A stretch of DNA of 64,000 bases from a bacterium (GCA_032250835.1 JAVVEA010000007.1:64001-128000), one strand, 5' to 3'; positions 43,034 to 58,033 are shown, counted from the stretch's first letter. A program made the numbers and translations. Notes: generated by a model from the sequence alone, not told the origin.

Positions 43034-43444
43034 ATGGAAACAAGCGCCTCCTTTCAGTTAGCTAGTTGGAACGAGCTGGCCTACCTCGAAGGCTTAGAAC
43101 CCCAAATGACCCAGGCCGATGTGGGTTTTGTCTTTGACGGCGGCTTTAAAGGCGTGGGCCAAATCCGCTATTTGATGTGTTACCAGCACTTTGACGGGCA
43201 AAACCCCATCAACAGTGAAGCCCGCTATTCCGGTTTGGTCCGCTTCGAGGGGGAATTAGATGGCCAGCAGGGGAGCTTTGTGGCCGAAGACCGGGGCGTC
43301 TTTGGGGCGGGAACTGCCCGCTCAACCTTGACCATCATGCCCCAATCAGGGCGCGGCGAGTTGGCGGGAATCTCAGGCAGCGGCAGCTATGAAGCGGGCC
43401 ACGGCGGTGGCCAGCTCCAGCTTTCTTACCAAATATCGGACTAA
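43034..43444 (+). CDS. DUF3224 family protein
   Basis: ASWNE, RFEGELDGQQGSFV and SGRGELAGISG motifs. Confidence 0.85.
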   Translation: METSASFQLASWNELAYLEGLEPQMTQADVGFVFDGGFKGVGQIRYLMCYQHFDGQNPINSEARYSGLVRFEGELDGQQGSFVAEDRGVFGAGTARSTLTIMPQSGRGELAGISGSGSYEAGHGGGQLQLSYQISD

Positions 43445-44355
43445 AACAAGTACCAGCCGACCACCAGAACGGCGAAGCTGGCCAGTTTGATCCGGTCAAC
43501 GCGGCGCATGCGGCGCAGATGCCAAGACAAAATGGCTAGGCCCATCATCAAAGAATCCGAAAAGGCCAAGCCCAAGGCGAGCATCAAGAAAAACCCAGCG
43601 TCCCAAAGGGCCCGTTGGTACCAGCGGGGGTTTAATTCTAACTGATGGGCCCAACGGCTCCAGGTTAGTTGAATGGTAGGTGCCAACGCCGCCACCTCTT
43701 CGGCACTCAGGGCCCTTTGCCAGAGCCTGGGCGCTCCGATCAAGCCTTCAAAGGCCGTTTCCGGCTGGAATCCCCGGCCCAAAATGAGCCGCTCGGCGGC
43801 CGGTGCTGCTTTAGTCCGCGTACCATCCGGCAAGACTTCCTCCAAATCCAGATAAACCCGAAAGCCCTCACCCTGACGGATCAACACCACCCAAACAGGC
43901 CGCCCCAAGCGGTGGTAGCCCGGCGGACGCCAAAAAACCTCACGATAACTGGAAAAATGCAGCCTGCCGGTGGCGCTATCGAGCCAAAGAGACACTAAAG
44001 TTTCTCCCTCCGCTTGGCCCATCCAAAATAGGTTGATCAAGTCATGGTTCGCCGGGCGTTCCAAGCTGGTCGGTGCGTACCAAAAGCTCAAGGTAAAGTC
44101 TCCGGCCGGTGCCGGTAACTCCAACCCGCCGTCTAGTTGGCCCGATAGGGCCCAAGCTTGGTCCAGATTTTTTGCGGGCTCCGCTGGGCTCTGCACCAAG
44201 ACTTCCCCGCCTGCTTGAGGCAGCGGTGTCCGCTGGGCTGCGGCCTCGCCTAGCTTTTGTCCCGCCAGATACCGCCCGCCCCATTCAGGCCCCCAGAGGG
44301 CGACGGCCAAAGCCAACAGCGCCAAGACCCCAAAAATCGCCGCAGGGGCTTTCAT
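43441..44355 (-). CDS. Membrane protein with LamG/concanavalin A-like domain
   Basis: DFTLSFW...FEGLIGAPRLWQRALSAEEV; terminal TM segments. Confidence 0.7.
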   Translation of the reverse strand: MKAPAAIFGVLALLALAVALWGPEWGGRYLAGQKLGEAAAQRTPLPQAGGEVLVQSPAEPAKNLDQAWALSGQLDGGLELPAPAGDFTLSFWYAPTSLERPANHDLINLFWMGQAEGETLVSLWLDSATGRLHFSSYREVFWRPPGYHRLGRPVWVVLIRQGEGFRVYLDLEEVLPDGTRTKAAPAAERLILGRGFQPETAFEGLIGAPRLWQRALSAEEVAALAPTIQLTWSRWAHQLELNPRWYQRALWDAGFFLMLALGLAFSDSLMMGLAILSWHLRRMRRVDRIKLASFAVLVVGWYLF

Positions 44356-46505
44356 GCCCGCCTCTTTGCCCAAGCCAACCATCCCAGCCCCAAGAACGAG
44401 CCCAGTAAGCCCAACCGCCGCAACCAAACGCCCCAGAGGTGTGTTGCGGGTTCAAAGGCAAAGCGTATTTGGTGGTGGCCGGACTCGAGAGCCAGCCCCT
44501 TAAAGGCGAAGTCAGCGCGCAAAATCTCTTGGCGCTGCCCGTTGACCCAGGCCTTCCAGCCAGGATGCCAGCTATCGACCCAAACCAACCAATTGCGGCA
44601 GTTCGGCGGCACCTCGGCATTTAGCGACAGGCCATTGGGGTCAAAGTGGTTGACCTCTAACTGGCCCACCAGGGCACAGCCCTCCGTAGCGCCGCCTTCA
44701 AGCCAAACCTGTTGGTGCAAATCGCTCCGCGCCATCTCTTGGAGTTGGGCCAAGGGGACGGCGTCCGATCCTCCAAGCGGTAAATTTTGCGCTTGGGCGA
44801 CCAAGAAAACCGGCGCTCCGTTCGCTAAATCCACCAGCGCCGGTTCGTCTTGATTTTGGGGGTGGATAAATTCGCTCAGGAAGCGGTTTTCAGGCTTACC
44901 GGCCCAGATGGTCTGCGAATGGCTCCAGAGCAAAAAACGCTCGGTGCGGGCCATCGCCGGGGTTACATAGCCCCGCACCACCGCTCGGTTGTGTAGATTG
45001 TGCTGCACGCCACTGACCGCTCGGGGCGTCTGGAAGTAGCGGTCCTTCCGGTCGGCCTCTTGGGCCCAAATCTGGGCGGCACCCCGCTGGTAATCTTCAT
45101 AATGGGCCAAAGGGGCGGCGGTCTGGTGGTTCATCAGCCTAAAGACAAAAGCCAACTCTAACACCGTAATCACCACCACCCAGGGCCGCAAGCGAGACAG
45201 ACGGCCTTCGAGCCACATCCAGCAGGCCACCGAAAGAATCAAAACCACAAAATAACCGTGCAGTTCCGGGCGCTTGATCAACTCGGGCTTGGTCATCATC
45301 GCTAAGGCAGTGGCCAGCGCCAAAAATCCAAAGAGTACCTTAAAAAGGTGGCGGTCCTTTTCCTCATCTGGGCGCTTCGACAAGAAGTCTAGCCCTTTGG
45401 CTGCAAAAAGCGCCAAGGGTAACCCCAGATAGAGCGCTGTGCGGTGGTGCCAATGCTGGCCCGCATAGCCGGGCAACAGGAGGTAAAAAAGATCGGCAAA
45501 GAGAAAGTAAGAACCGGACCCAAAAAGGATTAAACCACCCAAAAACAGCACCCAACGCCCAGCCTTTTCGGGCCGCGCCGCCGGGAAGAAGATCGGCACC
45601 AGCACCATCAAGTAAAGACCAAAACCAAACCAAGCGGACTGGAAGATTTGATAATCCATGGGGCTAAAAAACCGATCGACTACCGTCGAGCGGTTCAGCC
45701 CGCTCATAGCGTAGGCATAAATCTTTTTGACCCGCTCCGAATAGAGCAACACATGCTGCAATAGCGGCAACAACGCCGGAGCGGCCAAGAGCACCGCTAA
45801 GGCCTGAGCCCCGACGAAGTCCCCCCAAAAGCGCAGGTCCAAGCAACGCGGCCATTGGTAAATCAGCGCCAGCCCAACCAACAGGACCGAAACATAATAA
45901 CAAACCGGCAGGAAGTTGGTGCTGTATAAGACCCCCAAAACCAACCCCAGGTAAAATGCAGCGCGGCGTTGCCCTTTCAGCATCCGCAACAAAAACAGCA
46001 CCGCCAGCGGGAACCAAGCGAGCCCGTAAAGCCACTCAAAGCCATCGGTGGCATTCTGGGCGGCGCTCGAAAGGGCCCAGCCCATAGCCCCAAAGAAGCT
46101 GGCTAACGGGCTTAAGCGCTGGTCGCTTAAAAACAAGTAGGCGCTGCCCGCCCCGAGGCTAAAATGCAGCACCACATAGAAGCTAAAAAGCCGCAGGAAG
46201 GCGACGGGGTCTAGGTCGAAAAACCAGCTTAAGATCCAGGCAGGCGGGTAATAGGCTGTGTTACTAATCTGCGCCACCGCCGGGTAGCCCAAACTGACGT
46301 AGGGGTTCCAAAGCGGCTCGATGCCGATGGATAGGTATTTATTGAAGTAGTAGGCCCACCAGTAAGAATAAGAAAGGGTGTCATTGCGGAAGAGCCAAAG
46401 CTCTTCTTTGGGCCCAAAGAAAAAGGGCCAATGGAAGGCCAAGGGGGTCAAGCAAGCAAGCCCCAAAAGCGCAAACCACAAGCCTTTTGATGGAGTGGGG
46501 ATCAT
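44352..46505 (-). CDS. YfhO-family (GT-C-like) membrane protein
   Basis: PLWNPYVSLGYP near N-terminus, many TMs, C-terminal WHPGWKAWVNG...GHHQIRF. Confidence 0.85.
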   Translation of the reverse strand: MIPTPSKGLWFALLGLACLTPLAFHWPFFFGPKEELWLFRNDTLSYSYWWAYYFNKYLSIGIEPLWNPYVSLGYPAVAQISNTAYYPPAWILSWFFDLDPVAFLRLFSFYVVLHFSLGAGSAYLFLSDQRLSPLASFFGAMGWALSSAAQNATDGFEWLYGLAWFPLAVLFLLRMLKGQRRAAFYLGLVLGVLYSTNFLPVCYYVSVLLVGLALIYQWPRCLDLRFWGDFVGAQALAVLLAAPALLPLLQHVLLYSERVKKIYAYAMSGLNRSTVVDRFFSPMDYQIFQSAWFGFGLYLMVLVPIFFPAARPEKAGRWVLFLGGLILFGSGSYFLFADLFYLLLPGYAGQHWHHRTALYLGLPLALFAAKGLDFLSKRPDEEKDRHLFKVLFGFLALATALAMMTKPELIKRPELHGYFVVLILSVACWMWLEGRLSRLRPWVVVITVLELAFVFRLMNHQTAAPLAHYEDYQRGAAQIWAQEADRKDRYFQTPRAVSGVQHNLHNRAVVRGYVTPAMARTERFLLWSHSQTIWAGKPENRFLSEFIHPQNQDEPALVDLANGAPVFLVAQAQNLPLGGSDAVPLAQLQEMARSDLHQQVWLEGGATEGCALVGQLEVNHFDPNGLSLNAEVPPNCRNWLVWVDSWHPGWKAWVNGQRQEILRADFAFKGLALESGHHQIRFAFEPATHLWGVWLRRLGLLGSFLGLGWLAWAKRRA

Positions 46506-46710
46506 AAGTAGCGTCGCGTAACAGGCCGGTTGGCTTGGGTTTCCCTTAAAGTCTTTAGAGGCTTAGTTCAATCACTAACATGCTTCCTGATGCCGTAGGA
46601 CTCCGTCAAGAAAGAGCGCCCTAAGGCGGTGTTCCTTAACCACTTTACGCTTACCGTTTACTTCGGTAAGCTCACCAGACTGCGACCCGCTGTTCACACT
46701 AAGGAGGCTC

Positions 46711-47559
46711 ATGTCCTGGTTCAAACGAATCGCGCCCAAACTACTGCCGACCGACAACAAAAAGAATATCCCCGCCGGGGTTTGGATCAAGTGTCCCGAA
46801 TGCGGCGAGACCCTATACTCCAAAGAGTTGGAGAAAAACGACAAGGTCTGCCTCAACTGCGAATACCACTTCCGCCTCACTGCCGAAGAACGCATTAGCT
46901 TGATGTTAGACGAGGGGAGCTTTGAAGAACTCTTTATGGGCATCCTGCCCAAAGACCCCTTAAAGTTCTCGGACAGCAAAAAATATAAAGACCGGATCAA
47001 GGCGGCCAACAGCAAGACCAAGCTCGAAGAAGCGGTTACCTGTGGTCAGGGCCGGATGGAAGGCCAACCGGTGATGCTGGGCGTCTTTAACTTCCGCTAT
47101 ATGGGCGGGTCCATGGGTTCTGTGGTGGGCGAGAAGCTGACCCGGTTGATTGAAGAGGGGCTCAAACGCCGCACCCCAGTGATCATCATTTCCGCTTCCG
47201 GCGGTGCGCGGATGCAGGAAGGCGCCCTGTCGCTGATGCAGATGGGCAAGACCTCGGCGGCGCTGATGAAGCTACAAAAAGCGGGCGTCCCCTACATCTC
47301 TGTGATGACCGACCCCACCACCGGCGGCGTCTCGGCTAGTTTCGCCATGTTAGGCGACGTGAACATCGCCGAGAAAGGTGCCTTGATTGGCTTTGCCGGT
47401 CCCAGGGTAATCCAACAAACCATGGGAAAGCCCCTGCCCCAAGGGTTCCAACGGGCCGAGTTTTTGTTGGAGCACGGCGCGGTGGACATGGTCTTGGACC
47501 GACGCGAAATGAAAACCCGCATTGCCGGGTTGCTTTCGATCCTTTTGCCTCAAAATTAA
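46711..47559 (+). CDS. accD: Acetyl-CoA carboxylase carboxyltransferase beta subunit
   Basis: WIKCPEC zinc finger, [25 protein letters not shown]. Confidence 0.97.
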
Positions 47560-47602
47560 ATCCTGGGGGCGACGGCCCCTATTTTCCTCTGGGTTGTCGA
47601 AC

Positions 47603-48691
47603 ATGTCTAAAGTCGCGCTGATCACCGGGGTCACCGGTCAGGACGGGGCCTATTTGGCCGAATTGTTGCTAGAAAAGGGCTATGAGGTCCACGGCCTCAA
47701 GCGCCGCGCCTCCTCCTTCAACACCGACCGGATCGACCATCTCTACCAGGACCCCCACGCCAACCAGCGCAAGTTCATCTTACATTACGGCGACCTAACC
47801 GACTCGACCAACCTGATCCGCTTGGTCCAAGAAATCCAGCCGGACGAGATTTACAACTTAGCCGCCCAGAGCCACGTGGCGGTCTCCTTTGAGACGCCCG
47901 AATACACCGCCAACGCCGATGCCATCGGCACCTTGCGCTTGTTAGAGGCGATCCGGGTTTTAGGCTTAGAGAAAAAGACCCGCTTTTATCAGGCCAGCAC
48001 CTCGGAGCTTTACGGCGAAGTGGCCGAAACGCCGCAGCGCGAAACCACGCCCTTCCACCCCCGTTCTCCTTATGGCGTAGCCAAGCTCTATGGTTACTGG
48101 ATCACCGTCAACTACCGCGAAGCCTACGGCCTGTTCGCCTGCAACGGGATTTTGTTTAACCATGAATCCCCCCGGCGCGGTGAAACCTTTGTGACCCGCA
48201 AGATCACCCGCGCTTTGGCGCGCATCCACTTAGGGCTAGAAGACTGCCTCTATCTGGGCAACATGGACGCCAAGCGCGACTGGGGCCATGCTAAGGACTA
48301 CGTAGAGGCCATGTGGCGGATGTTGCAACAAGACCAACCCGACGACTTTGTGGTCGCCACGGGGGTGCAGTATTCGGTGCGGCAGTTTGTTGAAGCCGCC
48401 GCCAAGAAGTTGGGTTGGGTGATCCGCTGGGAAGGGAGCGGTGAACAGGAACGGGCGATCCGCCAAGAAAATGACCAAGTGGTGGTCCAAGTAGACCCCC
48501 GCTATTACCGCCCCGCCGAGGTGGAAACCCTTTTGGGCGATCCGGCCAAAGCCAAGGCCATATTGGGCTGGGAGCCGAAGATCGGCTTTGACCAATTGGT
48601 CACCGAGATGGTGACCGAGGATTTGAGGATTGCCCAAAAAGAGCAGCACATCACCCAAGGCGGCTTCGACGCTTACAGCCCGCACGAATAG
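47603..48691 (+). CDS. gmd: GDP-mannose 4,6-dehydratase
   Basis: [28 protein letters not shown] and FNHESPRRG motifs. Confidence 0.97.
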
Positions 48692-48897
48692 GGGCGGGTT
48701 CGCCTTCGCGGAGACAACAGCCCCTCTTTCCAGGCTCAATGGAAGCCCAGAGTTATTGGAAGAATTGAAAAGAAGGGACTTCTTTCTTTGGCTCGCAAAG
48801 AAACGAGCCCTCGCCTTCGCGCCTAAGACCGCCAACGCCTCACTCGCAAGAGTGAACCCAAAAGCCCTACACCGCAAGCGTCGGGTTTCCGCTGCAC

Positions 48898-48989
48898 AAT
48901 AGGTATACTGTCCCCTGATTCCATAAAAATAGGTATACTGTCCCCTGATCCCCCGATTCTGATTCTTCTGATTTTGTCCTCTGAATTTT
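48898..48989. repeat. Left array of REP-like palindromes
   Basis: AATAGGTATACTGTCCCCTGAT at 48898-48919 and 48928-48949, then partial copies ending CTGATTTTGTCCTCTGA. Confidence 0.8.
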
Positions 48990-49110
48990 TAATCGCCTCC
49001 AAGGCCACTTTGGCCTTGAATTCTTTGCTGAAATTCTGCCGTTTCATGACACTCCGTTTTTTGGTTCGGCTCTATCTTAACAAGTTGTCCAGTTTCTGGG
49101 GTCCACTATA
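48988..49110 (-). mobile_element. IS3-family remnant: terminal IR plus first 20 codons of OrfA
   Basis: Minus strand TATAGTGGACCCCAGAAACTGGACA (49110-49086) followed by MKRQNFSKEFKAKVALEAIK. Confidence 0.8.
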
Positions 49111-49120
49111 GTCCACTATA

Positions 49121-51664
49121 TTATTTCTTGCGTAAATTACTAAGTTCATAGTTGTGTGACCAAATTCTCCAGCCAGAAATTCCTACAACCTTCAAAAAGG
49201 CGAGTTCAACCTTAATTGGCTTACCTTTCGTTGATTCGTCTATTTCCTTGTCATCAAATTGAAAAAGGTGGGCACTTGTCTCCGAGTTTATCCGATACAC
49301 GACAAATATTTCTTCATTCCTATTTTTTACTATGCTTCCTATCTGGATGTTTTGCTTTTTAGATATTTTTTCAAAAGGCAGCAGAGTGCAAAATTCAATA
49401 CTCCACTGCTTGATTTTTTCTAACCAAGGACCAAATTCTTCAGATTCATAGTTTCCTTTCACTGAATCCAGGTATTCTTCAATTCGTGGGTGACAATTCA
49501 ACCATGGAACAAGCGATAGCAGAACAGCGTGATCAAACAACTCTGCTTCTTCAATTTCCTCCGTGTCCCACCCAGAGTACTCCCGATTTTTGACATCGAC
49601 TTCCCAAGCTAAACAGAGCAATGCTGGGACTAGAAAATACAATTCATCTGGCAAACTATCGTTACCGTCCACGATTTTTTTGAAACGCCAGTTACCTGAC
49701 CTCGAGAACAAGTATTGTATGGCTACACTCAGCAACTCCTTCTGCTGCTCAAAAATATCAAGTTTTGGGTCATCTATAAAGCTTCGTTGCAGCGTAGCGC
49801 GTGAAAGCAGGTGAGCTGCACAGGCCAATATTCCTGCATACCTCTCAACAGTAACGATGTCTTGGTCAGGGTTTTTAAATAAGTTAGTTTTCAAGCTCCG
49901 TACGATATAAGTCGCTTTGTTTGATAGTTGCTCCCGTAGTTGCGTATCGACGGGCTCTAAATCGATTTCATCTGAATCCTCATGTTTCGTTAAAGCGAGT
50001 AATTCCTCCTCATCTACCTCTTGGATTTTAGGTTCAATCTTTCGGTCAGTTAAAAACAGACGAGGTAACATTTCCAAGAGACTTCCTAAATCACCATGAC
50101 GAAGATGATTGATGTGGTTGTGACTATCTGGACTTATCTCGTCTTGATAGAAAATTTCCATCGAAGCGGTTTGAACGGGATTTTGCTTCGGACTTTGACT
50201 TGAGGCAGAGTTAGCTTGAGGGCCGCTTTTTATTAGTTTTTGAAACAGATCAAACAAAGGTTGGGGGCTATCTTCACCTAGAAAAATTCCTTTGAGTAAA
50301 CTTTGAATTTTTTTCTCTTGATCTGACATACTTAGGTTTTGTATGTGCCTTACCTCGATCAAAAGCAGTTGCAGGCTTTCTGACTCAGCGTTGCTGAGTC
50401 TAGCGCGTTTCCAGGAAGAGTACGGGATGCCTTCCACACGAAAATGTAGCCTGTCATCCACCAACTCAGATTCAGAAATGAGGAAAAGTTGATTATCCCA
50501 TTCGTCCAGCAACTCCAACTTAGAGCCATTTTGCCAAGACTTAGGCACGTTCAGCACACGCAGTTCACCGCCCTCCCTTTGCGCCCATAAAAGGCCTCCT
50601 GTTGAGCCACTGTCGGCTGTGGGGTTATTCTTCCTCACTTGCGCTCTTTGTGTCGCTGAAAGCTCTGGGCAATCAAATAAATCGTTTAGCTTCAATTTGT
50701 CAGCGAGTTGCTTAGCTAATTCACCCTCATGGACAACGACCGCTTCAGCGTTTCTACCGCCCGTATTAGCTAGCCACGCTGCCGCGCTTGCATTTGCACT
50801 ACCGCTAATCAGGAGGTCTTCGTCGTGAGTTGATTGAAAATAAAAAAACTTTGCGTGTTTGAAACAGTTTATTGCCGTATCCCGTAAATCCACATTATTG
50901 GCATCGACAAACATCACCCCATCAGCATCGATTTCATCTACGTCCACTTCACAGACCTCTGGGTCAATCGCCACCGTAAGAGGGCATTTGAATTTTTCTC
51001 GCAATTGTTTGAGGAATTCTAGATTGCGGTCAAAATATGGGCTAAACACCAAAATCCGGCTGCATTGGAGATTTCTATCCGCCAAAACCTGATTCCAAAG
51101 GCTAGGGCCATCTGGAGTCGAGTAATAAAAAGGGGGAGATTGATCGGAAAGCAAGTTGGACGCTTGCGGCATTTGCCCCCAAAACTCGGTCAAAGCGTTT
51201 TGTATTGGCAGGGGAATATCGGATTGTAACATCCAAGATTCAGCTAGATTTTGAACATGACCAATGAGTTGTTGGGCAATCGGTTGATCGGAAAGTTCAG
51301 TGAAAGAGCTTGAAACTTCCAAGTTATGCCCGTATCCCGAAAAGGTTAGGTTATGGCTACCCACATGCAATCGAGTTTGTTTTTTCCCAAAAAGAAATAG
51401 GAGCTTTGGGTGGAAGCTTTGAGCGCAATCGACCGGAATCAATAAATACTCTTTTCCTGCAAGGGTAGGTGCCTGATCTGGATCGGCTAAAGCCTTAACC
51501 AGCTGCCGCCGGTCCATCAGCAATACATTAAACAAGCACCCGCGTCGCTGCAAGCGCTTCAAAATAAAGCGTTCGTAAAAAGGGAAATATACGTTGAAGC
51601 TAGTTATTAAAGACGATTGGAACGCATGTTCTTCTAGTGATTTAATCAAGGATAGTTCATTCAT
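49121..51664 (-). CDS. Phospholipase D-superfamily protein with two HxK motifs, putative nuclease/defence effector
   Basis: FHPKLL...GSHNLT and KHAKFF...GSANAS; SPYFD; long uncharacterised C-terminal half; AT-rich. Confidence 0.8.
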   Translation of the reverse strand: MNELSLIKSLEEHAFQSSLITSFNVYFPFYERFILKRLQRRGCLFNVLLMDRRQLVKALADPDQAPTLAGKEYLLIPVDCAQSFHPKLLFLFGKKQTRLHVGSHNLTFSGYGHNLEVSSSFTELSDQPIAQQLIGHVQNLAESWMLQSDIPLPIQNALTEFWGQMPQASNLLSDQSPPFYYSTPDGPSLWNQVLADRNLQCSRILVFSPYFDRNLEFLKQLREKFKCPLTVAIDPEVCEVDVDEIDADGVMFVDANNVDLRDTAINCFKHAKFFYFQSTHDEDLLISGSANASAAAWLANTGGRNAEAVVVHEGELAKQLADKLKLNDLFDCPELSATQRAQVRKNNPTADSGSTGGLLWAQREGGELRVLNVPKSWQNGSKLELLDEWDNQLFLISESELVDDRLHFRVEGIPYSSWKRARLSNAESESLQLLLIEVRHIQNLSMSDQEKKIQSLLKGIFLGEDSPQPLFDLFQKLIKSGPQANSASSQSPKQNPVQTASMEIFYQDEISPDSHNHINHLRHGDLGSLLEMLPRLFLTDRKIEPKIQEVDEEELLALTKHEDSDEIDLEPVDTQLREQLSNKATYIVRSLKTNLFKNPDQDIVTVERYAGILACAAHLLSRATLQRSFIDDPKLDIFEQQKELLSVAIQYLFSRSGNWRFKKIVDGNDSLPDELYFLVPALLCLAWEVDVKNREYSGWDTEEIEEAELFDHAVLLSLVPWLNCHPRIEEYLDSVKGNYESEEFGPWLEKIKQWSIEFCTLLPFEKISKKQNIQIGSIVKNRNEEIFVVYRINSETSAHLFQFDDKEIDESTKGKPIKVELAFLKVVGISGWRIWSHNYELSNLRKK

Positions 51665-53312
51665 TTCGCCATTTTGATAGAATTTGCTCCGCAGCTAGGG
51701 AGATACCAATCATTTGATCACTATTCGTCTCAATCAAACCTAAATCCACTAAAAATTGGCGGGATGGCTCAAAGCGAGGATTGGTAAAGACCGGGGTAGG
51801 TATGCGATCAACGTCAACCAGCAGCCCGAATTCCGTAGGCTTTAAACGGAAGGTATCTTGTCCGTATTGGGCCATTTTGATTAAAGCTACTTGAAGATGG
51901 CAATCTAAGGTCCACCTCGTCAGCAATTCTTTTACCACTTGTTGAAATGTCATTGCAGCCCAATCAACAAATACCAATTTAAGAAAATTTCCTAAACTTA
52001 AGCTGTATGACCTCCGGTCTTCTAAGCTAAATTGGCTGTCTGCAGGAAGGTTTGTGCTGTTATTCTGCTTTGCCCTGATAGCAATAGCTAACAACAAATC
52101 CAAAGCGGTCTCTAATAGTTGTTCTAACTCCAGATTGCTAGTTAACTCTATCGCCAATTGACACTCATGATTTTTAGCTTGCCATTCCAGAAGGCCTGGA
52201 AGGGTCGGTTCCTCTTCCTCCAAGATCAATGAGAAGGATTTCTGGTCAATATCCTCATACAGTTCTTGCCAGATTTCCTGAGTAAACAGCCACTCTGCAA
52301 ACTGACCGCTATTGCTAAATCGAACGCCTTCGCTTGAGACTGAATCTATGGCGCTTAAAGCAAACTGAAATAGCCCCTGCATTGCCATTGCCAGAAGCTC
52401 TGACTGCTCGTATAGCGCCCAACCTTCTCGAATTCGTTCCAACGACGATGGAAGATTCCAAGGCTGTTGATCCTGTGTCGCATTGGCATAACATTGAGCA
52501 CGAAATGCAAGGGAGGCTAAATTTGGATTTTCGACTTTCGTAGCGCCATCGATCCAGTGGAGGATCAAGCTGAGAGAGGCAGGTCGGTAGCCCGCGAATG
52601 ACTTCGCTGAGCTGGCAGTGGTAGCAAAGAGAAGATTAGTTAGCTGCTTTTGCTCAGATGCGCTTTGACGCAGTTGGCAGAAACAGAAGCTAGCAAGCTG
52701 ATCTAACCGGTTCAGGTCAAATTCGTCTTTATTAAGTGTCTGGAAAAATAATTCCGAACTTTCATCCGAAGCAAAGCTTTTTGCTAACGGGGAAATATTG
52801 GAAACAACGCACTTTAGCTTTTTCAGGTCCCCTTCAAAAAAGCCATAGGAAGCAAGTGTAGAAAAGTAATACTGCCCCAACCCGCCTTTGAGATTCTGAA
52901 AATAAGACTTTTCTGCTTTCGGGTCAGCAAAGTGACTCAAGCGCAATGTGTGGTCGCTATCTAACGCATTCAGAGCTGGCCCTAAGGTATTACTCCCAAC
53001 CATCGCTTTGATATGCTGCGAAGGAGCAGGTCCGTTACCTGTATGATTATGCCTGTGCGCGATCAGTGTTAAAAGGCATTCAGCACGCCGGAGGAAGGTG
53101 ATCACCTGCGTGTCATCAAGTGCAAACCTTTCGCATGTATGAAATGTATGAAAAAACCAGGGATAAAAAGAGTAATAGCGTAACCGTTCAGTTACGTTTG
53201 TTATGCCAGGGAGGAGTTCGGCATACAAAGCTTTATTGGGAGCTTGCACGCCCAAGTGGTCCAGCCCACCCTTTTCGTACATTGGTTTTGTCCAGAAAGT
53301 ATCTTGGTTCAT
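51657..53312 (-). CDS. Uncharacterised protein, partner of the PLD protein (DUF6361-like N-terminal motif)
   Basis: GLDHLG...LLPGITNVTERLRYYSFYPW; stop overlaps the PLD gene start by 8 bp. Confidence 0.7.
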   Translation of the reverse strand: MNQDTFWTKPMYEKGGLDHLGVQAPNKALYAELLPGITNVTERLRYYSFYPWFFHTFHTCERFALDDTQVITFLRRAECLLTLIAHRHNHTGNGPAPSQHIKAMVGSNTLGPALNALDSDHTLRLSHFADPKAEKSYFQNLKGGLGQYYFSTLASYGFFEGDLKKLKCVVSNISPLAKSFASDESSELFFQTLNKDEFDLNRLDQLASFCFCQLRQSASEQKQLTNLLFATTASSAKSFAGYRPASLSLILHWIDGATKVENPNLASLAFRAQCYANATQDQQPWNLPSSLERIREGWALYEQSELLAMAMQGLFQFALSAIDSVSSEGVRFSNSGQFAEWLFTQEIWQELYEDIDQKSFSLILEEEEPTLPGLLEWQAKNHECQLAIELTSNLELEQLLETALDLLLAIAIRAKQNNSTNLPADSQFSLEDRRSYSLSLGNFLKLVFVDWAAMTFQQVVKELLTRWTLDCHLQVALIKMAQYGQDTFRLKPTEFGLLVDVDRIPTPVFTNPRFEPSRQFLVDLGLIETNSDQMIGISLAAEQILSKWRNE

Positions 53313-53404
53313 TTTTTCAGACCATATTAATTATTCAATGTTCCACCACGTACTTAGCAGTTTACCTGGAAATTTTCAATTTTAACCGCAAATATACGAT
53401 ATAT

Positions 53405-53415
53405 TATAGTGGACC
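53405..53415 (+). mobile_element. Outer tip of an IS3-type inverted repeat
   Basis: TATAGTGGACC is the exact reverse complement of GGTCCACTATA at 49100-49110. Confidence 0.55.
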
Positions 53416-53498
53416 AACCTTTTAAGAACGTTCCCTAGGCGCTCCCTTGTCTGAAGGCAAACACCCATCTCACTCTGCGGCCCAATGCCCCTCGTTCG

Positions 53499-53595
53499 AA
53501 AATCAGGGGACAAAATCAGGTGGCAGTATACCGATTTTTGCTCAAATCCAGCGAATTGCGCTGTCATTGAAATCAGGGATTCTGTCATCTGATTT
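53499..53595. repeat. Right array of REP-like palindromes, inverted relative to the left array
   Basis: AAAATCAGGGGACAAAATCAGGTGGCAGTATACCGATTTTT, plus inverted copy AAATCAGGGATTCTGTCATCTGATTT at 53570-53595. Confidence 0.75.
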
Positions 53596-53683
53596 ATTTA
53601 ATCTTTATCGACCTAATTAGGTTCGCCCCAACAAGCGGATGCAGCAGTGCTTGGGGGTGTAAAAAAGACAACCTAAGAACCCC

Positions 53684-54604
53684 CTACCGCTCCGTCAGCT
53701 TCAGCGGCAAGTCTTCGTGCACGCCGCGGTTGGCGTAGCCTTTCCAGGCGGCGACGTCCAGCTTCTGGCCTTGATTCCAGTAGGCTAGCATCTTCTCGGG
53801 GTCTAAGGCTCCGGCCTTATTGGCGAACTCCTGCTGCACCTTGTTGTAAGGCACGTTGACCTGTCGGGAGGTGGCGTAGGCGACGCCCGCGCGGTCGGCG
53901 AAGAGGGGCCAGAAGATTTGTAGGCCGTGTTCTAGGCTGTTGGGGGCCTTGAAGGGGATCATCCGGCATTGGGCCAAAAACTCACGGGTATCAAAAATAT
54001 GGCCGTCTACCGAAAGGGGGTAACCCCAGTCATATTCCCCTTGCCGCCAACGCCAGCGGATAAAGCCACCCTCTTCTTGCAAGGGGGGCCGCTGCATGGG
54101 CAAACCCAACATATAATGGAAGTCCAACTGGGCCCCATGGCGCAGGCTGAAGACGGCCTCCTTGGGGTCCTGCTTCAGGGCCTCGGTGAAGTCGAATTCT
54201 TGGGTGAAGAGGATGTCATCGACCAAAAAGAAGACCCGCGTTGCCTCAAGGGCCGCCAAGAGGTCCAAAAGATCGCTACGGAAGGCGTATTCCTCCACAA
54301 AGGTCACCGGCCAATCCTTACAAAGCCGCCTAACCTCGGCGTAGGCTCCTTGGTGGGCTTTGCTAGAGGCGCGGAAAAGGACGCTCAAGGGGGCGGGGTC
54401 TTGGGCCTGCAAAAAATAAGACTCTAAAAGCGCGAAGAGCTGCAAGGCGCGGTCAAAACTAAAAACCACCCCGGCCAGCGCGTTGGGGCGCGGGGCCGAG
54501 TCGCGCGCCAATTGGACCTGGACCATCTGTTTCAGCTGGGAAGTCCGCCAAGGCAGGTTCAACTGCCCGGCCAAGCGCAGGTGACGCAACCAACGCCGGA
54601 TCAT
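53684..54604 (-). CDS. Putative GT-A-like glycosyltransferase
   Basis: FSFDRALQL, FFLVDDILF and YPLSVDGHIF motifs; glycan-locus context. Confidence 0.6.
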   Translation of the reverse strand: MIRRWLRHLRLAGQLNLPWRTSQLKQMVQVQLARDSAPRPNALAGVVFSFDRALQLFALLESYFLQAQDPAPLSVLFRASSKAHQGAYAEVRRLCKDWPVTFVEEYAFRSDLLDLLAALEATRVFFLVDDILFTQEFDFTEALKQDPKEAVFSLRHGAQLDFHYMLGLPMQRPPLQEEGGFIRWRWRQGEYDWGYPLSVDGHIFDTREFLAQCRMIPFKAPNSLEHGLQIFWPLFADRAGVAYATSRQVNVPYNKVQQEFANKAGALDPEKMLAYWNQGQKLDVAAWKGYANRGVHEDLPLKLTER

Positions 54605-55353
54605 GACTTAACCCACCAGAAACAACCGCAGCCATATTCTTGTTGGTCGCATAACTCCGCACTAGCGCCGACCAGCAAATCCCCGGCGGCGGGATCGTCA
54701 GGGATCAGGGCGAATTGGCGCAGTTCAAAGCCCTCAAAGTAGCCTAAAATCTGTTGGTAGCCGTAAATCCGGTGGGCGTTGTATTGGACCTGCGGTTTGC
54801 CAATAGGCACCACAAACAAGAGGCTGCCGCCGGGTGCAACCACCCGCTTGAGTTGCTCGATGGCCTTTAAGTCGCCCATGGGGTCGATGGCGTCACCGTA
54901 ACGCCCGAGCCCCACATGCTCGACTACATGCATGCAAGAAAGGCTTTCGAGGCTGTTGTCTTCAAAGGGCAAGGCATTGAGGTCTGCGGCGTTACATTCT
55001 AAGTTATCCAAGCCCATCGGGGCGGGGCGGTAATCGTAAAAGGAGACGGGGATAAAGGCCGAAAGCAGGGCCGAAAAGTCCACCTTACTGCCCACATCCA
55101 CATGCCGCTTCGGGGCGATCTCGCGCACCGCACGGGCCGCCCAGGCGGGGTGGAAGACATAATGCCGGTCGAAACCGGTCTGGGCGGTTTTCTCACCCAA
55201 GATCGGGAACTTCGGCCCCATGGGCAGGTCTTCGCGGGTTCCGGCGGCACGGAATCGGGCCCAGTCGCGCAAGTAGTCGAGGAAAAAAAGACTATTGCGC
55301 AGTTGCCGCGCACCGGCAAAAAGAAGAAATTGTTTCAGCAGGCTAGGTCGCAT
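54601..55353 (-). CDS. SAM-dependent methyltransferase-like protein (DUF268-type)
   Basis: HVDVGS, SCMHVVEHVGLGRYGD and NAHRIY motifs. Confidence 0.8.
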   Translation of the reverse strand: MRPSLLKQFLLFAGARQLRNSLFFLDYLRDWARFRAAGTREDLPMGPKFPILGEKTAQTGFDRHYVFHPAWAARAVREIAPKRHVDVGSKVDFSALLSAFIPVSFYDYRPAPMGLDNLECNAADLNALPFEDNSLESLSCMHVVEHVGLGRYGDAIDPMGDLKAIEQLKRVVAPGGSLLFVVPIGKPQVQYNAHRIYGYQQILGYFEGFELRQFALIPDDPAAGDLLVGASAELCDQQEYGCGCFWWVKS

Positions 55354-55486
55354 AGGTAAAGGCTCCAAAGATGGGGCTCATTCTGCCCGATAGGACCCAT
55401 TAAGACAAGCAGCACCCCGCCCTGAGGCTTGTGGTCTGCTTGATTATCTGCCATCTTCGGGTGGAAAACCCCTTACCTTGCCCTTT

Positions 55487-56992
55487 ATGGCCAGCAAAAA
55501 GCTCTCCTTCTTTCTGGGTGCCGCCGTCGACTTGATGGGTATTCCAGTGACCATGTTCTTGAGCTTTGTGATGGTGCCCCTTTATCTGCGCCACATCGAA
55601 GCCGCCGAGTTCGGCTATTGGTCGGCCACTTTAGAGGCCACCCAATTTGCCAGCCTGCTTTGGATCAGCTTCGATTACTTCTTGATCCAGTCCGTCTCGG
55701 GCAAGATCGACCAGCCCGAGGAGTTGAGCCAGGACTTAAGTGAGTCGGTGGTGGTGGTCTTGATTTGGGCTAGCCTATCGGTGCTTTTGGTGGCTCTGGT
55801 GGTTTGGGTGCATCCTCAACTATTAGAGCAAATCGGCTTCCAGGCATTCAGCGGGTTGATTTCCTTGATGGCCCTTTGGGCGGTGTTGCGCTCCTTGCGC
55901 CATCTACTGACCAGCTGCCTGATCGGCCAGAACCGCATGCCTTTAGTCAACGGCATCGGCCTGTTGGGTACTGCGCTGTTCCAGGTCCTGCCCTATGTTT
56001 ACCTACAATTTGGTTGGGGCTTGTTGTCCTTTGGGCTAGGCTACCTGAGCGCCTTTGTGTTGCTCTTGAGTCTAGAGGCCTCCCAGGTAGGGGGCTTCTT
56101 TTTGGCGCACTTTAAGCCCCAATTGGTGCGGCTCAGTGGCGTCAAAAGTCTACTAGGCTTTTCCTTCCAGACCTTCACCAGCAAGTTCAGCCAACACGCC
56201 TACACCTACATCAACATCTTTGTAATCGCCCAGTTGCTGGGTGCCGCAGCCATTGCGGTCTATGTGCTTAGCCTCAAACTGACCAATTTTTCTAAGTTCA
56301 TTGTCCCGCGCATCTCCGCCATTGGCTTCCCCTCTTATGCCCGGCTGCTGGCCGAAGGTAACTTAGAACGCATGGGGGAGGTGTTACTGAAGCTTTACCG
56401 GTTTAGTCTGCGTTTCGGGTTGCTCTTGAGCGGTAGCATCTTCTTCCTCAACGGCGTTTTTGTGGCCCATTGGGTCGGGGCTGAGCAATATGCCGGATTT
56501 ACCTTCACGCTGCTGGCGGCGGCCTTTTGTTTTAAGGAGTCGCTGGTCGCTATCTTTTACCAGACCGTTTTCGCCACCCGAGAGATCACCTGGGCCAACC
56601 GGGTGATTGTTTTTGAGGCGCTCTTAAACTTGGGCCTCGCCTATGTTATGGGGCAGTACTGGGGCGTGACCGGGGTATTAGCGGCGACCTTAATCTCCAC
56701 CGGACTGGCCTCGACTAGCTATCTTGTTTTTAAAAGCCTGCAATTGGCCGGGTTGCGGCTAAGTGACTTGATCACCACCTCCCCGGCGGTTTTGCTTAAA
56801 AGCTTGCCTAGCCTAGCGGCCCTTTATGGCGGGGCTTGGTTGCTAGAGCTGCAGTTTGACTGGTGGCTGCTCATAGCGACGGTGGCCTTGGCCGGGCTGT
56901 TGAACCTGCTCTTTTTTGAGGCTCGCTTGGCCTTTGAGCTGCGGCACTTGGGCCCCAAGGAGATCTTAAAGGAGATGATCGAGCGGTCTTAA
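55487..56992 (+). CDS. Polysaccharide flippase (Wzx/MATE-like)
   Basis: About 12-14 TMs; VPLYLRHIEAAEFGYW N-terminal motif. Confidence 0.8.
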   Translation: MASKKLSFFLGAAVDLMGIPVTMFLSFVMVPLYLRHIEAAEFGYWSATLEATQFASLLWISFDYFLIQSVSGKIDQPEELSQDLSESVVVVLIWASLSVLLVALVVWVHPQLLEQIGFQAFSGLISLMALWAVLRSLRHLLTSCLIGQNRMPLVNGIGLLGTALFQVLPYVYLQFGWGLLSFGLGYLSAFVLLLSLEASQVGGFFLAHFKPQLVRLSGVKSLLGFSFQTFTSKFSQHAYTYINIFVIAQLLGAAAIAVYVLSLKLTNFSKFIVPRISAIGFPSYARLLAEGNLERMGEVLLKLYRFSLRFGLLLSGSIFFLNGVFVAHWVGAEQYAGFTFTLLAAAFCFKESLVAIFYQTVFATREITWANRVIVFEALLNLGLAYVMGQYWGVTGVLAATLISTGLASTSYLVFKSLQLAGLRLSDLITTSPAVLLKSLPSLAALYGGAWLLELQFDWWLLIATVALAGLLNLLFFEARLAFELRHLGPKEILKEMIERS

Positions 56993-57016
56993 GCCTATGG
57001 ACGGCTTAGGCCTCTG

Positions 57017-58033
57017 GTGTTAGAAAAGAAGTCAACGCCAACTTCTTTACTCAGGCCCCCATTGCTTGTTAAACTCACCGGCTTTTCTGATTATCCGATC
57101 CTGCGCCAGACCCGGCGGCAACTGGGCCTTTGGGGTGGGTTTCAGTTTTTTAACGATGAAGAGGAAGACCGCCCCTATGACTTCTGGGTGGTTTACGGAA
57201 ATATCAACCGGCCCCTTCAGGCCCTCTGCCCGCCCGAGCGGTTGGTTTTGGTTACCGGCGAGCCGCCCTCGGTGGACTATTACCCCCCCGGTTTCACCAA
57301 ACAATTTTGCCGGGTGATCACCAGCCACCGCCGGATCAAACACCCCGACCGACACCTGGAGCAACAAGGCCTTCCCTGGCACGTAGGCCGGCGGCAGGAA
57401 AACCACCAAAGCCTTAGCTACAGCAAAGACTACGACGAACTTTGCGCGATAGAAGAGCTGCCTAAGTCCAAATTGATTTCGGTGATCAGCAGCAACAAGA
57501 GGCTGTCTAAGGGCCACCGAGCCCGGCTCGACTTTGTGATGAAGCTCAAAGACCACTTTGGTGACCAGATCGACCTCTTTGGCCGGGGGCTCGCCGAGAT
57601 TGCCGACAAGTGGGACGCACTGGCCCCCTACCGCTACCATGTTTGCATCGAAAACAGCGCGGCGGACGACTATTGGACCGAAAAGCTTTCGGACAGTTAT
57701 CTCGCCTTAAGCTACCCGCTCTATTATGGCTGCCCCAACCTGACCCACTACTTTGAGGCCGATTCCTTCCGGGCCATCGACATCCACCGGCCCGATCAGG
57801 CGATTCAGACCATCCAAGCAGCTCTAGACCAAGACCTATATGGCCAATCTCTGGGCGCGTTGCAAGAAGCCAAGACCTTGGTCTTAAAGGAATATAACCT
57901 CTTTGCGTTGTTGGCACGGCACCTGGGCGAGCTGGCCGAGCGCCCGGCGGGACCGCCGCAGCCGGTCTGGATCAAACCCTATTTGTGGCAACAGAAAGTG
58001 GGGCGGCAGTTGATCAAGCGCCTGGGATTATAA
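57017..58033 (+). CDS. Glycosyltransferase family 10 (fucosyltransferase-like)
   Basis: TGEPP and YRYHVCIENSAADDYWTEKLSD...PLYYG GT10 motif. Confidence 0.82.
   Translation: MLEKKSTPTSLLRPPLLVKLTGFSDYPILRQTRRQLGLWGGFQFFNDEEEDRPYDFWVVYGNINRPLQALCPPERLVLVTGEPPSVDYYPPGFTKQFCRVITSHRRIKHPDRHLEQQGLPWHVGRRQENHQSLSYSKDYDELCAIEELPKSKLISVISSNKRLSKGHRARLDFVMKLKDHFGDQIDLFGRGLAEIADKWDALAPYRYHVCIENSAADDYWTEKLSDSYLALSYPLYYGCPNLTHYFEADSFRAIDIHRPDQAIQTIQAALDQDLYGQSLGALQEAKTLVLKEYNLFALLARHLGELAERPAGPPQPVWIKPYLWQQKVGRQLIKRLGL

Follow-up and report, generated by a model that had tools for sequence, protein, structure and literature searches.

A putative two-gene phospholipase D-family anti-phage module with remote likeness to Azaca and PDC-M27

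Azaca consists of three proteins, ZacA, ZacB, and ZacC. Its preprint reports that ZacABC degrades T4 DNA and protects strongly against T4, that the complex prefers T4 DNA, and that mutation of conserved ZacA residues had no effect (10.1101/2025.07.10.664194). PDC-M27, a PADLOC candidate system for which no paper was found in the literature, is an operon laid out like Azaca, in which an A protein is followed by a phospholipase D (PLD) protein and a superfamily 2 (SF2) helicase. A genuine PDC-M27 locus (L115, 5546-12529; another is L116) encodes A with 458 amino acids (aa), B with 640 aa and the PLD domain, and C, the SF2 helicase, with 1231 aa. This helicase reached 92 bits against ZacC, and the PLD domains of PDC-M27B and ZacB are homologous. 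In this study, we analysed a gene pair in a 64,000-nt stretch of a bacterial genome (GCA_032250835.1, JAVVEA010000007.1:64001-128000; hereafter the window, from whose first letter all positions are counted). On balance, we favour the reading that the pair is a putative self-contained, horizontally acquired module against phages or other mobile DNA and a relative of Azaca A + B and PDC-M27. The two genes are as follows.

51657..53312, minus strand: gene 1 (P0001), 551 aa, ATG start
49121..51664, minus strand: gene 2 (P0002), 847 aa, ATG start, a PLD-superfamily protein with a family-specific C-terminal half
51657..51664, minus strand: overlap of the gene 1 stop and the gene 2 start, 8 bp, ATGAATGA

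The junction reads AAATGAATGAAC, so the gene 1 stop and the gene 2 start overlap by 8 bp. An earlier reading of the window, made without database searches (hereafter the sequence-only reading), had described two large intact genes with this overlap, and the list of open reading frames (ORFs) and the junction sequence agree with it.

Conservation of the gene pair and its neighbours in other genomes

Relatives of gene 1 were collected from 185,579 species genomes (one genome per species). The scan gave 139 confirmed relatives, and 80 loci were kept. By their record titles, these loci belong to Alpha-, Beta-, and Gammaproteobacteria, Myxococcota, Desulfobacterota, Acidobacteriota, Gemmatimonadota, Planctomycetota, Spirochaetota, Fibrobacterota, and others. 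We found that a gene 2 homologue (~850 aa) lay directly downstream of gene 1 on the same strand in 75 of the 80 loci. The five exceptions were three loci at contig ends (L007, L019, and L070) and two loci with a truncated gene 1 (L057 and L065). Furthermore, a start codon permitting a short overlap was available in 68 of the 75 loci; the overlap would be 8 bp in 47 of them, 11 bp in 17, and 4 bp in another 4. When all ORFs of the loci were clustered, no other family was present in more than 10 of the 80 loci, and the other large ORF clusters were shadow frames over the pair itself. Genes 1 and 2 are a conserved two-gene module. The sequence-only reading had held that a third gene needed by all homologues would make the pair a fragment; no conserved third gene was seen, and the pair stood alone in the 75 loci.

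In addition, a word-indexed search returned 514 relatives of gene 1 at E ≤ 0.001, nearly all of about 550 aa and 32-37% identity, and 102 relatives of gene 2, nearly all of about 850 aa. Both ORFs of the window are intact and full length when compared with relatives of 33-37% identity. The gene 1 profile matched 2154 clusters at 50% identity, 546 of them at E ≤ 1e-30. All named relatives of both genes were called "hypothetical protein" or "phospholipase D family protein". A search for gene 1 in longer, fused forms found none and gives weak evidence on this point.

No ORF for a ZacC helicase was found in the low-GC insert that carries the pair, and no helicase family was conserved across the 80 loci. 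In its own genome, the ZacC model gave weak generic helicase matches only (33.5 bits, on another contig). In five other carrier genomes it reached at most 34.5 bits, with no match at all in two of the five, and it also matched in 6 of 14 control genomes. The pair is helicase-less, as had been claimed, with no ZacC linked to it and none found in its own genome or the five other carriers. Furthermore, the Walker A pattern was present in neither protein, in 1 of 26 gene 1 relatives, and in 0 of 30 gene 2 relatives. Among 88 genomes of the host's phylum, none had the ZacA family (0/88).

The relation to Azaca was judged against a genuine Azaca locus (L102), which encodes in a row ZacA (417 aa, 446 bits with PADLOC and 223 bits with Pfam DUF6361), ZacB (590 bits), and ZacC (1077 aa, 1189 bits). 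The sole PADLOC model matched by gene 1 was ZacA, at aa 13-78 only; with 18.2 bits versus 446 for true ZacA, a full-length ZacA (DUF6361, PF19888) was not found in gene 1. The same model matched 22 of the 26 gene 1 relatives. By BLASTP, gene 1 aligned with ZacA of the genuine locus at residues 18-81 only (31% identity, E 2e-6), and hhalign aligned 48 columns with a probability of 79%. Meanwhile, gene 2 matched ZacB (E 1.3e-15) and PDC-M27B (E 4.7e-15), then PbeA and DrmC weakly. The ZacB match is at the domain level, 55 bits versus 590 for true ZacB. For the PDC-M27 set, B was found at the domain level only (53 versus 767 bits), A had no match, and C was absent. The ZacB and PDC-M27B models matched all of the 30 gene 2 relatives. 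In hhalign, the gene 2 PLD domain and ZacB aligned over 300 columns with 96.1% probability, and the C-terminal halves did not align. Thus, the link to Azaca that the sequence-only reading had named is real (ZacB 55 bits, ZacA 18 bits), yet remote when set against the 590 and 446 bits of the genuine locus. In another locus (L103 7161-7637, minus strand; genome G196, contig C28), a 158-aa ORF matched only DUF6361 positions 4-62 (59 bits). Short proteins of their own may also carry the ZacA-type N-terminal motif.

The homologous pairs lie in defence islands. PADLOC was run on 76 of the 150 nearest neighbours that reached 150 aa in the first 40 loci (E ≤ 1e-10), and 32 of the 76 matched defence models, in 23 of the 40 loci. 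The matches included type I restriction-modification (RM), DISARM DrmA and DrmMI, a CBASS cyclase and effector, ThsB, AbiEi, Dsr1, a type IV restriction endonuclease, BrxH, PDC-S11, PDC-S14, PDC-S19, PDC-S31, PDC-S48, and HEC-03B. The 88 control proteins were taken from four carrier genomes (six arbitrary 20-kb regions in all); two of these proteins matched PADLOC, both through the generic ATPase model mad3. Per protein, the odds ratio was 31 (Fisher p = 7.8e-11), and the defence-island setting that had been proposed for check was borne out at this level.

Pfam was run on 75 upstream neighbours (2 of 77 were left out as duplicates), and 35 of the 75 had a Pfam family, about 29 of which we judged to be of restriction or defence type. 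The domains included HsdR, HsdS, YgjP, PIN7, DUF4268, WYL, CD-NTase with AGS_C, NERD, Mrr_cat, HNH/HNH_2, UvrD, AAA_15, and DEAD with MZB. For instance, in four loci (L004, L006, L013, and L037) the pair lies inside type I RM operons, with PDC-S11, PIN7, or PDC-S14 just upstream and hsdR beginning within a few bases of the gene 2 stop. In a metagenome-assembled genome of Polyangiaceae (L023 2284-12884), the pair lies on the opposite strand between DISARM DrmA (870 bits) and DrmMI (897 bits), and here it is cargo embedded in another defence system.

The two proteins and their predicted complex

Gene 1 had no match in Pfam at E ≤ 1 and no family in NCBIfam. Its translation contains the motif LDHLGVQAP...LLPGITNVTERLRYYSFYPW, whose residues are invariant or nearly so in 26 relatives; this is the motif D.LG...LLPGIT.VT.R.RYY.F.PW that the sequence-only reading had picked out. 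It lies at aa 17-64 and is common to ZacA/DUF6361. The predicted model of gene 1 (pLDDT, the predicted score of the local distance difference test, 83.7; predicted template modelling score 0.85) is mostly helical, with a winged-helix-like C-terminus around aa 490-550. Foldseek found nothing for this model in PDB (best E 0.3). A wide VIA-align search gave Z 5-7, below the meaningful level; the hits were winged helices of the PadR/MarR kind and the N.BspD6I and BpuJI recognition domains. The structure rows of the ESM Atlas gave BpuJI_N and FokI/AlwI-type clusters with a template modelling (TM) score below 0.3, and DUF6361 appeared there as a 0.81 lead only. We treat these fold matches as leads towards a possible DNA-binding role, not as findings.

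Gene 2 is divided as follows.

50630..51664, minus strand: double PLD domain (aa 1-345) in a single chain, with H85/K87/N105/E116 and H270/K272/N291/E307; the closest solved fold is Tdp1
50354..50596, minus strand: beta domain (aa 357-437), confidently modelled, without a known family
49946..50233, minus strand: linker (aa 478-573), low-confidence and disordered, rich in acidic residues and serine
49205..49948, minus strand: aa 573-820, made up of a helical domain (573-761) and, after it, a small beta domain (778-820), kept within the family and without a match to any named family

The mean pLDDT of the gene 2 model was 71, and the bilobed PLD domain was confident. The first half-site reads FHPK...VGSHN (H85, K87, G102-S103-H104-N105) and the second KHAK...SGSAN (H270, K272, G288-S289-A290-N291). 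Four residues past the lysine of either half-site there is no Asp, and H85, K87, N105, H270, K272, and N291 are invariant or nearly so in 30 gene 2 relatives. Both the translation and this alignment thus agree with the earlier claim of two PLD half-sites without the canonical Asp. Pfam PLDc_2 matched in two stretches (34.3 bits versus a cut-off of 27). With two HxK...G[ST]xN half-sites in one chain and a bilobed fold, gene 2 belongs to the PLD superfamily.

Among solved structures, Foldseek placed Tdp1 at the top for the PLD part (E 1.8e-8), and VIA-align of aa 1-351 against Tdp1 gave Z 22.8 and a root-mean-square deviation of 3.8 A over 315 aligned residues. PLD3/4, vaccinia F13, phosphatidylserine synthase, and bacterial PLDs followed at Z 17.6-20.6. 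The HKN motifs of Tdp1 lack the canonical Asp. Gene 2 may belong to this Tdp1-like (HKN) branch, which is further marked by activity on 3' DNA adducts: the Asp is missing and Tdp1 is the top fold, with a margin over other PLDs of about 2 Z units. When the gene 2 profile was run against PDB sequences, no chain fell below E 0.04. The C-terminal half had no named family in the ESM Atlas, which bears out the earlier remark on ~500 aa of C-terminal sequence without a known family. Furthermore, no membrane-like segment was found in either protein.

The complex was predicted with the whole of gene 1 and residues 1-440 of gene 2, each with its own alignment, together with three controls. The median score was 0.81 (runs of 0.75, 0.81, and 0.85), and the best of the three controls scored 0.00. 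In calibration, the threshold mark of the method was reached by 116 of 157 solved complexes and by 2 of 215 mismatched pairs, which is only roughly valid here since own alignments were used. The runs agreed in at least 84% of contacts, and partner pLDDT was at least 83. In the best run, gene 1 residues 1-13, which include the invariant W7 and have no order when the monomer is modelled, pair with gene 2 residues 115-120 and also contact 3-7 and 320-324. In addition, gene 1 residues 326-334 and 466-500 are predicted to lie against gene 2 residues 104-123 and 260-271. The predicted interface takes in N105, E116, and H270 of gene 2, so the N-terminal tail of gene 1 would lie beside the PLD catalytic residues. 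The ZacA-like motif of gene 1 (17-64) is outside the listed interface. This structure prediction, which had been proposed as a check, supports binding between the two proteins.

The low-GC insert and signs of mobility

The pair lies in an insert with the following boundaries and repeats.

48700..53650, no strand: low-GC (guanine plus cytosine) insert, about 41-46% GC, between gmd (47522-48691, plus strand) and a 306-aa ORF (53684-54604, minus strand)
48898..48952, plus strand: left outer repeat, two tandem copies of a dispersed repeat of ~25 nt, left boundary of the insert
53499..53539, minus strand: right outer repeat, an inverted copy of the ~25-nt dispersed repeat, right boundary of the insert
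49111..49127, no strand: left arm of the inner inverted repeat (GTCCACTATA...), just past the gene 2 stop
53398..53414, no strand: right arm of the inner inverted repeat, upstream of gene 1

The 1-kb windows from 48500 to 53499 had a GC content of 0.409-0.464, and the flanking windows 0.53-0.61, so the lower GC noted earlier from a few sequence lines is confirmed. The insert interrupts a polysaccharide/glycan gene cluster (window 43441-48691 and 53684-58033), whose members are a Laminin_G_3 protein, a YfhO-like membrane protein, GDP-mannose 4,6-dehydratase (47522-48691), a DUF268/Methyltransf_11 methyltransferase, a flippase-like protein, and a GT10 (fucosyltransferase-like) glycosyltransferase. 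This suggests that the cluster makes a fucose-type surface polysaccharide. Because of the GC break and the bracketing repeats, we take the pair to be a foreign insert in this cluster. The island was said to hold no helicase or methyltransferase; this is true of the low-GC insert, and the DUF268/Methyltransf_11 ORF (54601-55368, minus strand) is just outside, in the polysaccharide cluster.

The mobile-element scars of the sequence-only reading stood as far as the repeats that bracket the insert are concerned; no transposase or integrase was present at the insert. Within the window, the 18-nt word GGTATACTGTCCCCTGAT has three copies, two at 48902-48949 and an inverted one at 53515-53532, and none of 100 shuffles reached three or more matches. 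A 74-aa ORF (48823-49047, minus strand) was considered as a transposase remnant, as its first residues seemed to resemble the N-terminus of IS3 OrfA; it had no Pfam match at E ≤ 0.01, and the claim was dropped. Short copies of the outer repeat, with the same core, were also seen on three other contigs of the same genome: C38 (about 151390), C5 (about 40456), and C43, where two inverted copies (888-928 and 1645-1671) lie about 750 bp apart. The dispersed repeat is possibly a small mobile element of the non-autonomous kind. On contig C43, an open-ended ORF close to the copies (L086 2372-3025) may resemble an IS200/repetitive extragenic palindrome-associated tyrosine transposase.

The pair was not found in any of the 40 host relatives searched (0/40). 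It occurs in 12 plasmid records, at full length in two of them; for example, an Undibacterium plasmid carries both genes annotated as hypothetical. In viral contigs, 24 pattern matches were obtained and none was confirmed, and phage records gave no tblastn match. The distribution is patchy, and the pair looks horizontally acquired; the low GC, its absence from the 40 relatives, and its presence on plasmids point to a foreign origin.

Some further features of the window were recorded. An accD-like ORF (Carboxyl_trans and Zn_ribbon_ACC) lies at 46711-47559, and the 306-aa ORF that adjoins the insert has normal GC and is without a Pfam family at E ≤ 0.01. The scan for promoters and terminators gave counts not above those in shuffled sequence, and no tRNA genes were found close to the insert. 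No sequencing runs containing the stretch were listed, and the same was true of RNA runs.

Possible functions and comparison with known systems

A covalent phospho-histidine chemistry is common to PLD nucleases, and its details are taken here from Nuc, BfiI, and Tdp1. We propose that the two genes are translationally coupled and that their products would assemble into a complex. Gene 2 would be the effector, a single-chain double-PLD (HxK...GSxN, Tdp1-like) phosphodiesterase, which may cut DNA through a phospho-histidine intermediate without metal or ATP. Gene 1 would be the sensor or regulator, a new helical protein with winged-helix-like parts, whose N-terminal tail may dock, in the form of a strand, next to the catalytic residues of the PLD at the entrance to the active site. 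Gene 1 could either present foreign DNA to the active site or keep the site shut until foreign DNA or another cue arrives. The module would have lost, or never had, an SF2 helicase, and would carry the ~500-aa extension on the PLD protein instead. Since there is no methylase in the insert, the distinction of self from non-self would have to come from modification of the phage DNA, from DNA ends or structures, or from an abortive outcome. Phage DNA modification has been suggested in this role for Azaca with T4.

The reading of the pair as a self-contained helicase-less module, either new or a divergent variant, is supported by the lone pairs in 75 of 80 loci, the defence neighbours, the remote link to Azaca, and the lack of ZacC. 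However, several points weigh against it. According to the Azaca preprint (10.1101/2025.07.10.664194), cleavage in vitro needs all three proteins and the Walker A motif of ZacC, and a pair without the helicase might be inactive alone or reliant on a host factor. Only about 50-65 residues of gene 1 resemble ZacA, no relation to PDC-M27A emerged (hhalign probability 0.1%), and the winged-helix and type-IIS-like matches of gene 1 are weak (Z 5-7, TM below 0.3). The complex model covers residues 1-440 of gene 2, not its C-terminal half. In this window, the genes flanking the pair are polysaccharide genes, not defence genes. Furthermore, PADLOC covered 76 of the 150 nearest neighbours, and several loci are near-copies of one another, so that the neighbour proteins are not independent; the per-locus comparison (23/40 versus 2/6) was not significant, with p 0.39 and six control regions only.

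Four other explanations were weighed. The pair could be of the abortive-infection or toxin-antitoxin-like kind, where gene 2 would be a DNA-degrading toxin held by gene 1 until a phage cue frees it, and own and phage DNA would both be destroyed. We think this possible without expecting it. The predicted interface puts gene 1 on the PLD catalytic face (104-123 and 260-271), the genes are tightly coupled and always found together, and the insert has no modification gene to protect self DNA. However, gene 1 with 551 aa is far larger than usual antitoxins, and the interface is a prediction on a shortened chain; moreover, this explanation is a sub-case of the best one, not an exclusive rival. It is improbable that the pair is a DNA-repair or end-processing enzyme of the Tdp1 kind, removing protein or other adducts from DNA ends, in housekeeping or in the upkeep of mobile elements, with gene 1 as targeting subunit. 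Tdp1 is indeed the best structural match (Z 22.8; Foldseek E 1.8e-8), and both PLD motifs are without Asp like the HKN motifs of Tdp1. Tdp1 leads the other PLD folds by only some 2 Z units, though, the spread of the pair is patchy and looks horizontal (0/40 relatives, low GC, plasmids), its neighbours elsewhere are defence genes, and its nearest sequence relatives are components of defence systems.

The pair might also be what is left of a three-gene system, Azaca or PDC-M27, after decay, loss of the helicase, and loss of function. Both systems have an SF2 helicase as third gene, ZacC is required in vitro according to the Azaca preprint, and the insert is bounded by repeats and small ORF debris. 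Nevertheless, we regard a remnant as very improbable. Neither ORF is broken or shortened when set beside relatives of 33-37% identity, and the two-gene form recurs at 75 of the 80 loci, which come from many phyla. The family also keeps lengths of its own (about 550 and 850 aa) and scores far below true ZacA and ZacB, and the gene 1 profile matches 2154 clusters. The flanking GDP-mannose dehydratase, YfhO-like, flippase-like, and glycosyltransferase genes would fit a lipid- or glycan-related PLD enzyme of the surrounding polysaccharide cluster. This can be given next to no credence, however, as the GC break and the repeats mark the pair as an insert, the proteins have no membrane-like segments, the neighbours in other genomes are defence and not glycan genes, and the closest sequence relatives are nuclease-type PLDs of defence systems.

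We return to the reading of a helicase-less PLD module. It also has a wider form, which we put forward tentatively and hold to be rather doubtful. The pair would represent an unnamed, widespread branch, free of nucleoside triphosphatases, of an "A + PLD" superfamily that comprises Azaca, PDC-M27, and the pair, with about 2,000 clusters at 50% identity. In this branch, a new winged-helix-like sensor would use its N-terminal tail to gate the active site of a Tdp1-like phosphodiesterase, and the ~500-aa extension would replace the role of the helicase. In a bolder form, the target may be the modified or protein-capped DNA ends of invaders (terminal proteins, relaxase-DNA adducts) and not plain duplex DNA; this idea comes from the catalytic fold being closest to Tdp1. 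If the pair protects alone, the PLD nuclease core of Azaca-type systems can be controlled without helicase or ATP, and the sensing step is separable from the motor step in these systems. If the reading is true, a large family of "hypothetical proteins" without a Pfam or NCBIfam model (the 2154 clusters of the gene 1 profile) would also gain a function, and the pair would add a compact two-gene system to the cargo known inside type I RM and DISARM loci.

No published name for the pair was found in the literature, supplements of bioRxiv preprints aside, and a recent name may exist. For variants of Azaca, the Azaca preprint alone came up. The literature on Tdp1, anti-phage systems, and PLD gave nothing on the pair by title and abstract, and the accessible part of the guilt-by-embedding preprint (10.1101/2024.01.29.577857) does not describe it. 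PADLOC-DB v2, NCBIfam (June 2026), and Pfam have no models that call it. The sequence-only reading had proposed a comparison with Aditi; this did not hold, for no Aditi model (DitA/DitB) in PADLOC-DB v2 matched either protein at E ≤ 1.

DrmC of DISARM, DpdK of Dpd, PbeA, Nuc, and BfiI belong to the PLD superfamily, as gene 2 does. DrmC, DpdK, and PbeA differ in that their matches are far weaker and that they belong to larger systems whose helicases and methylases are missing from the insert. Their models matched, weakly, 19 (DrmC), 17 (PbeA), and 11 (DpdK) of the 30 gene 2 relatives. The DISARM set of DrmC with DrmA, DrmB, and a methylase was not found: DrmC matched only at E 0.018-0.05, NCBIfam DrmC_I at 14 bits versus a cut-off of 133, and there are no Drm genes in the insert. 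Tdp1 is the best solved-structure match to gene 2 aa 1-351 and likewise holds two PLD halves in a single chain. However, the identity is 12-15%, and Tdp1 is a eukaryotic repair enzyme without a partner subunit or a 500-aa extension.

PDC-M27 resembles the pair in the order of A followed by PLD-B, and PDC-M27B is the closest profile match to the gene 2 PLD domain (hhalign 97.7%, 290 columns); it differs in its third gene for the 1231-aa SF2 helicase, which the pair lacks. Azaca and the pair have the same gene order, A and then PLD-B, and both occur in defence contexts. Their A proteins share the N-terminal motif D.LG...PGI[ST]....RA.Y..F.PW, and their B proteins share a homologous Asp-less double PLD domain of the HxK...GSxN...N.E type. 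However, the pair is without the ZacC helicase, gene 1 has 551 aa versus 417 aa in ZacA and is unrelated to it beyond about 65 residues, and gene 2 has 847 aa versus about 610-649 aa in ZacB, with another C-terminal half. Azaca, PDC-M27, and the present pair without C are three related layouts of "A + PLD-B (+ helicase C)". The pair is best filed as a PLD-nuclease defence system related to Azaca, neither a member of Azaca nor categorically new.

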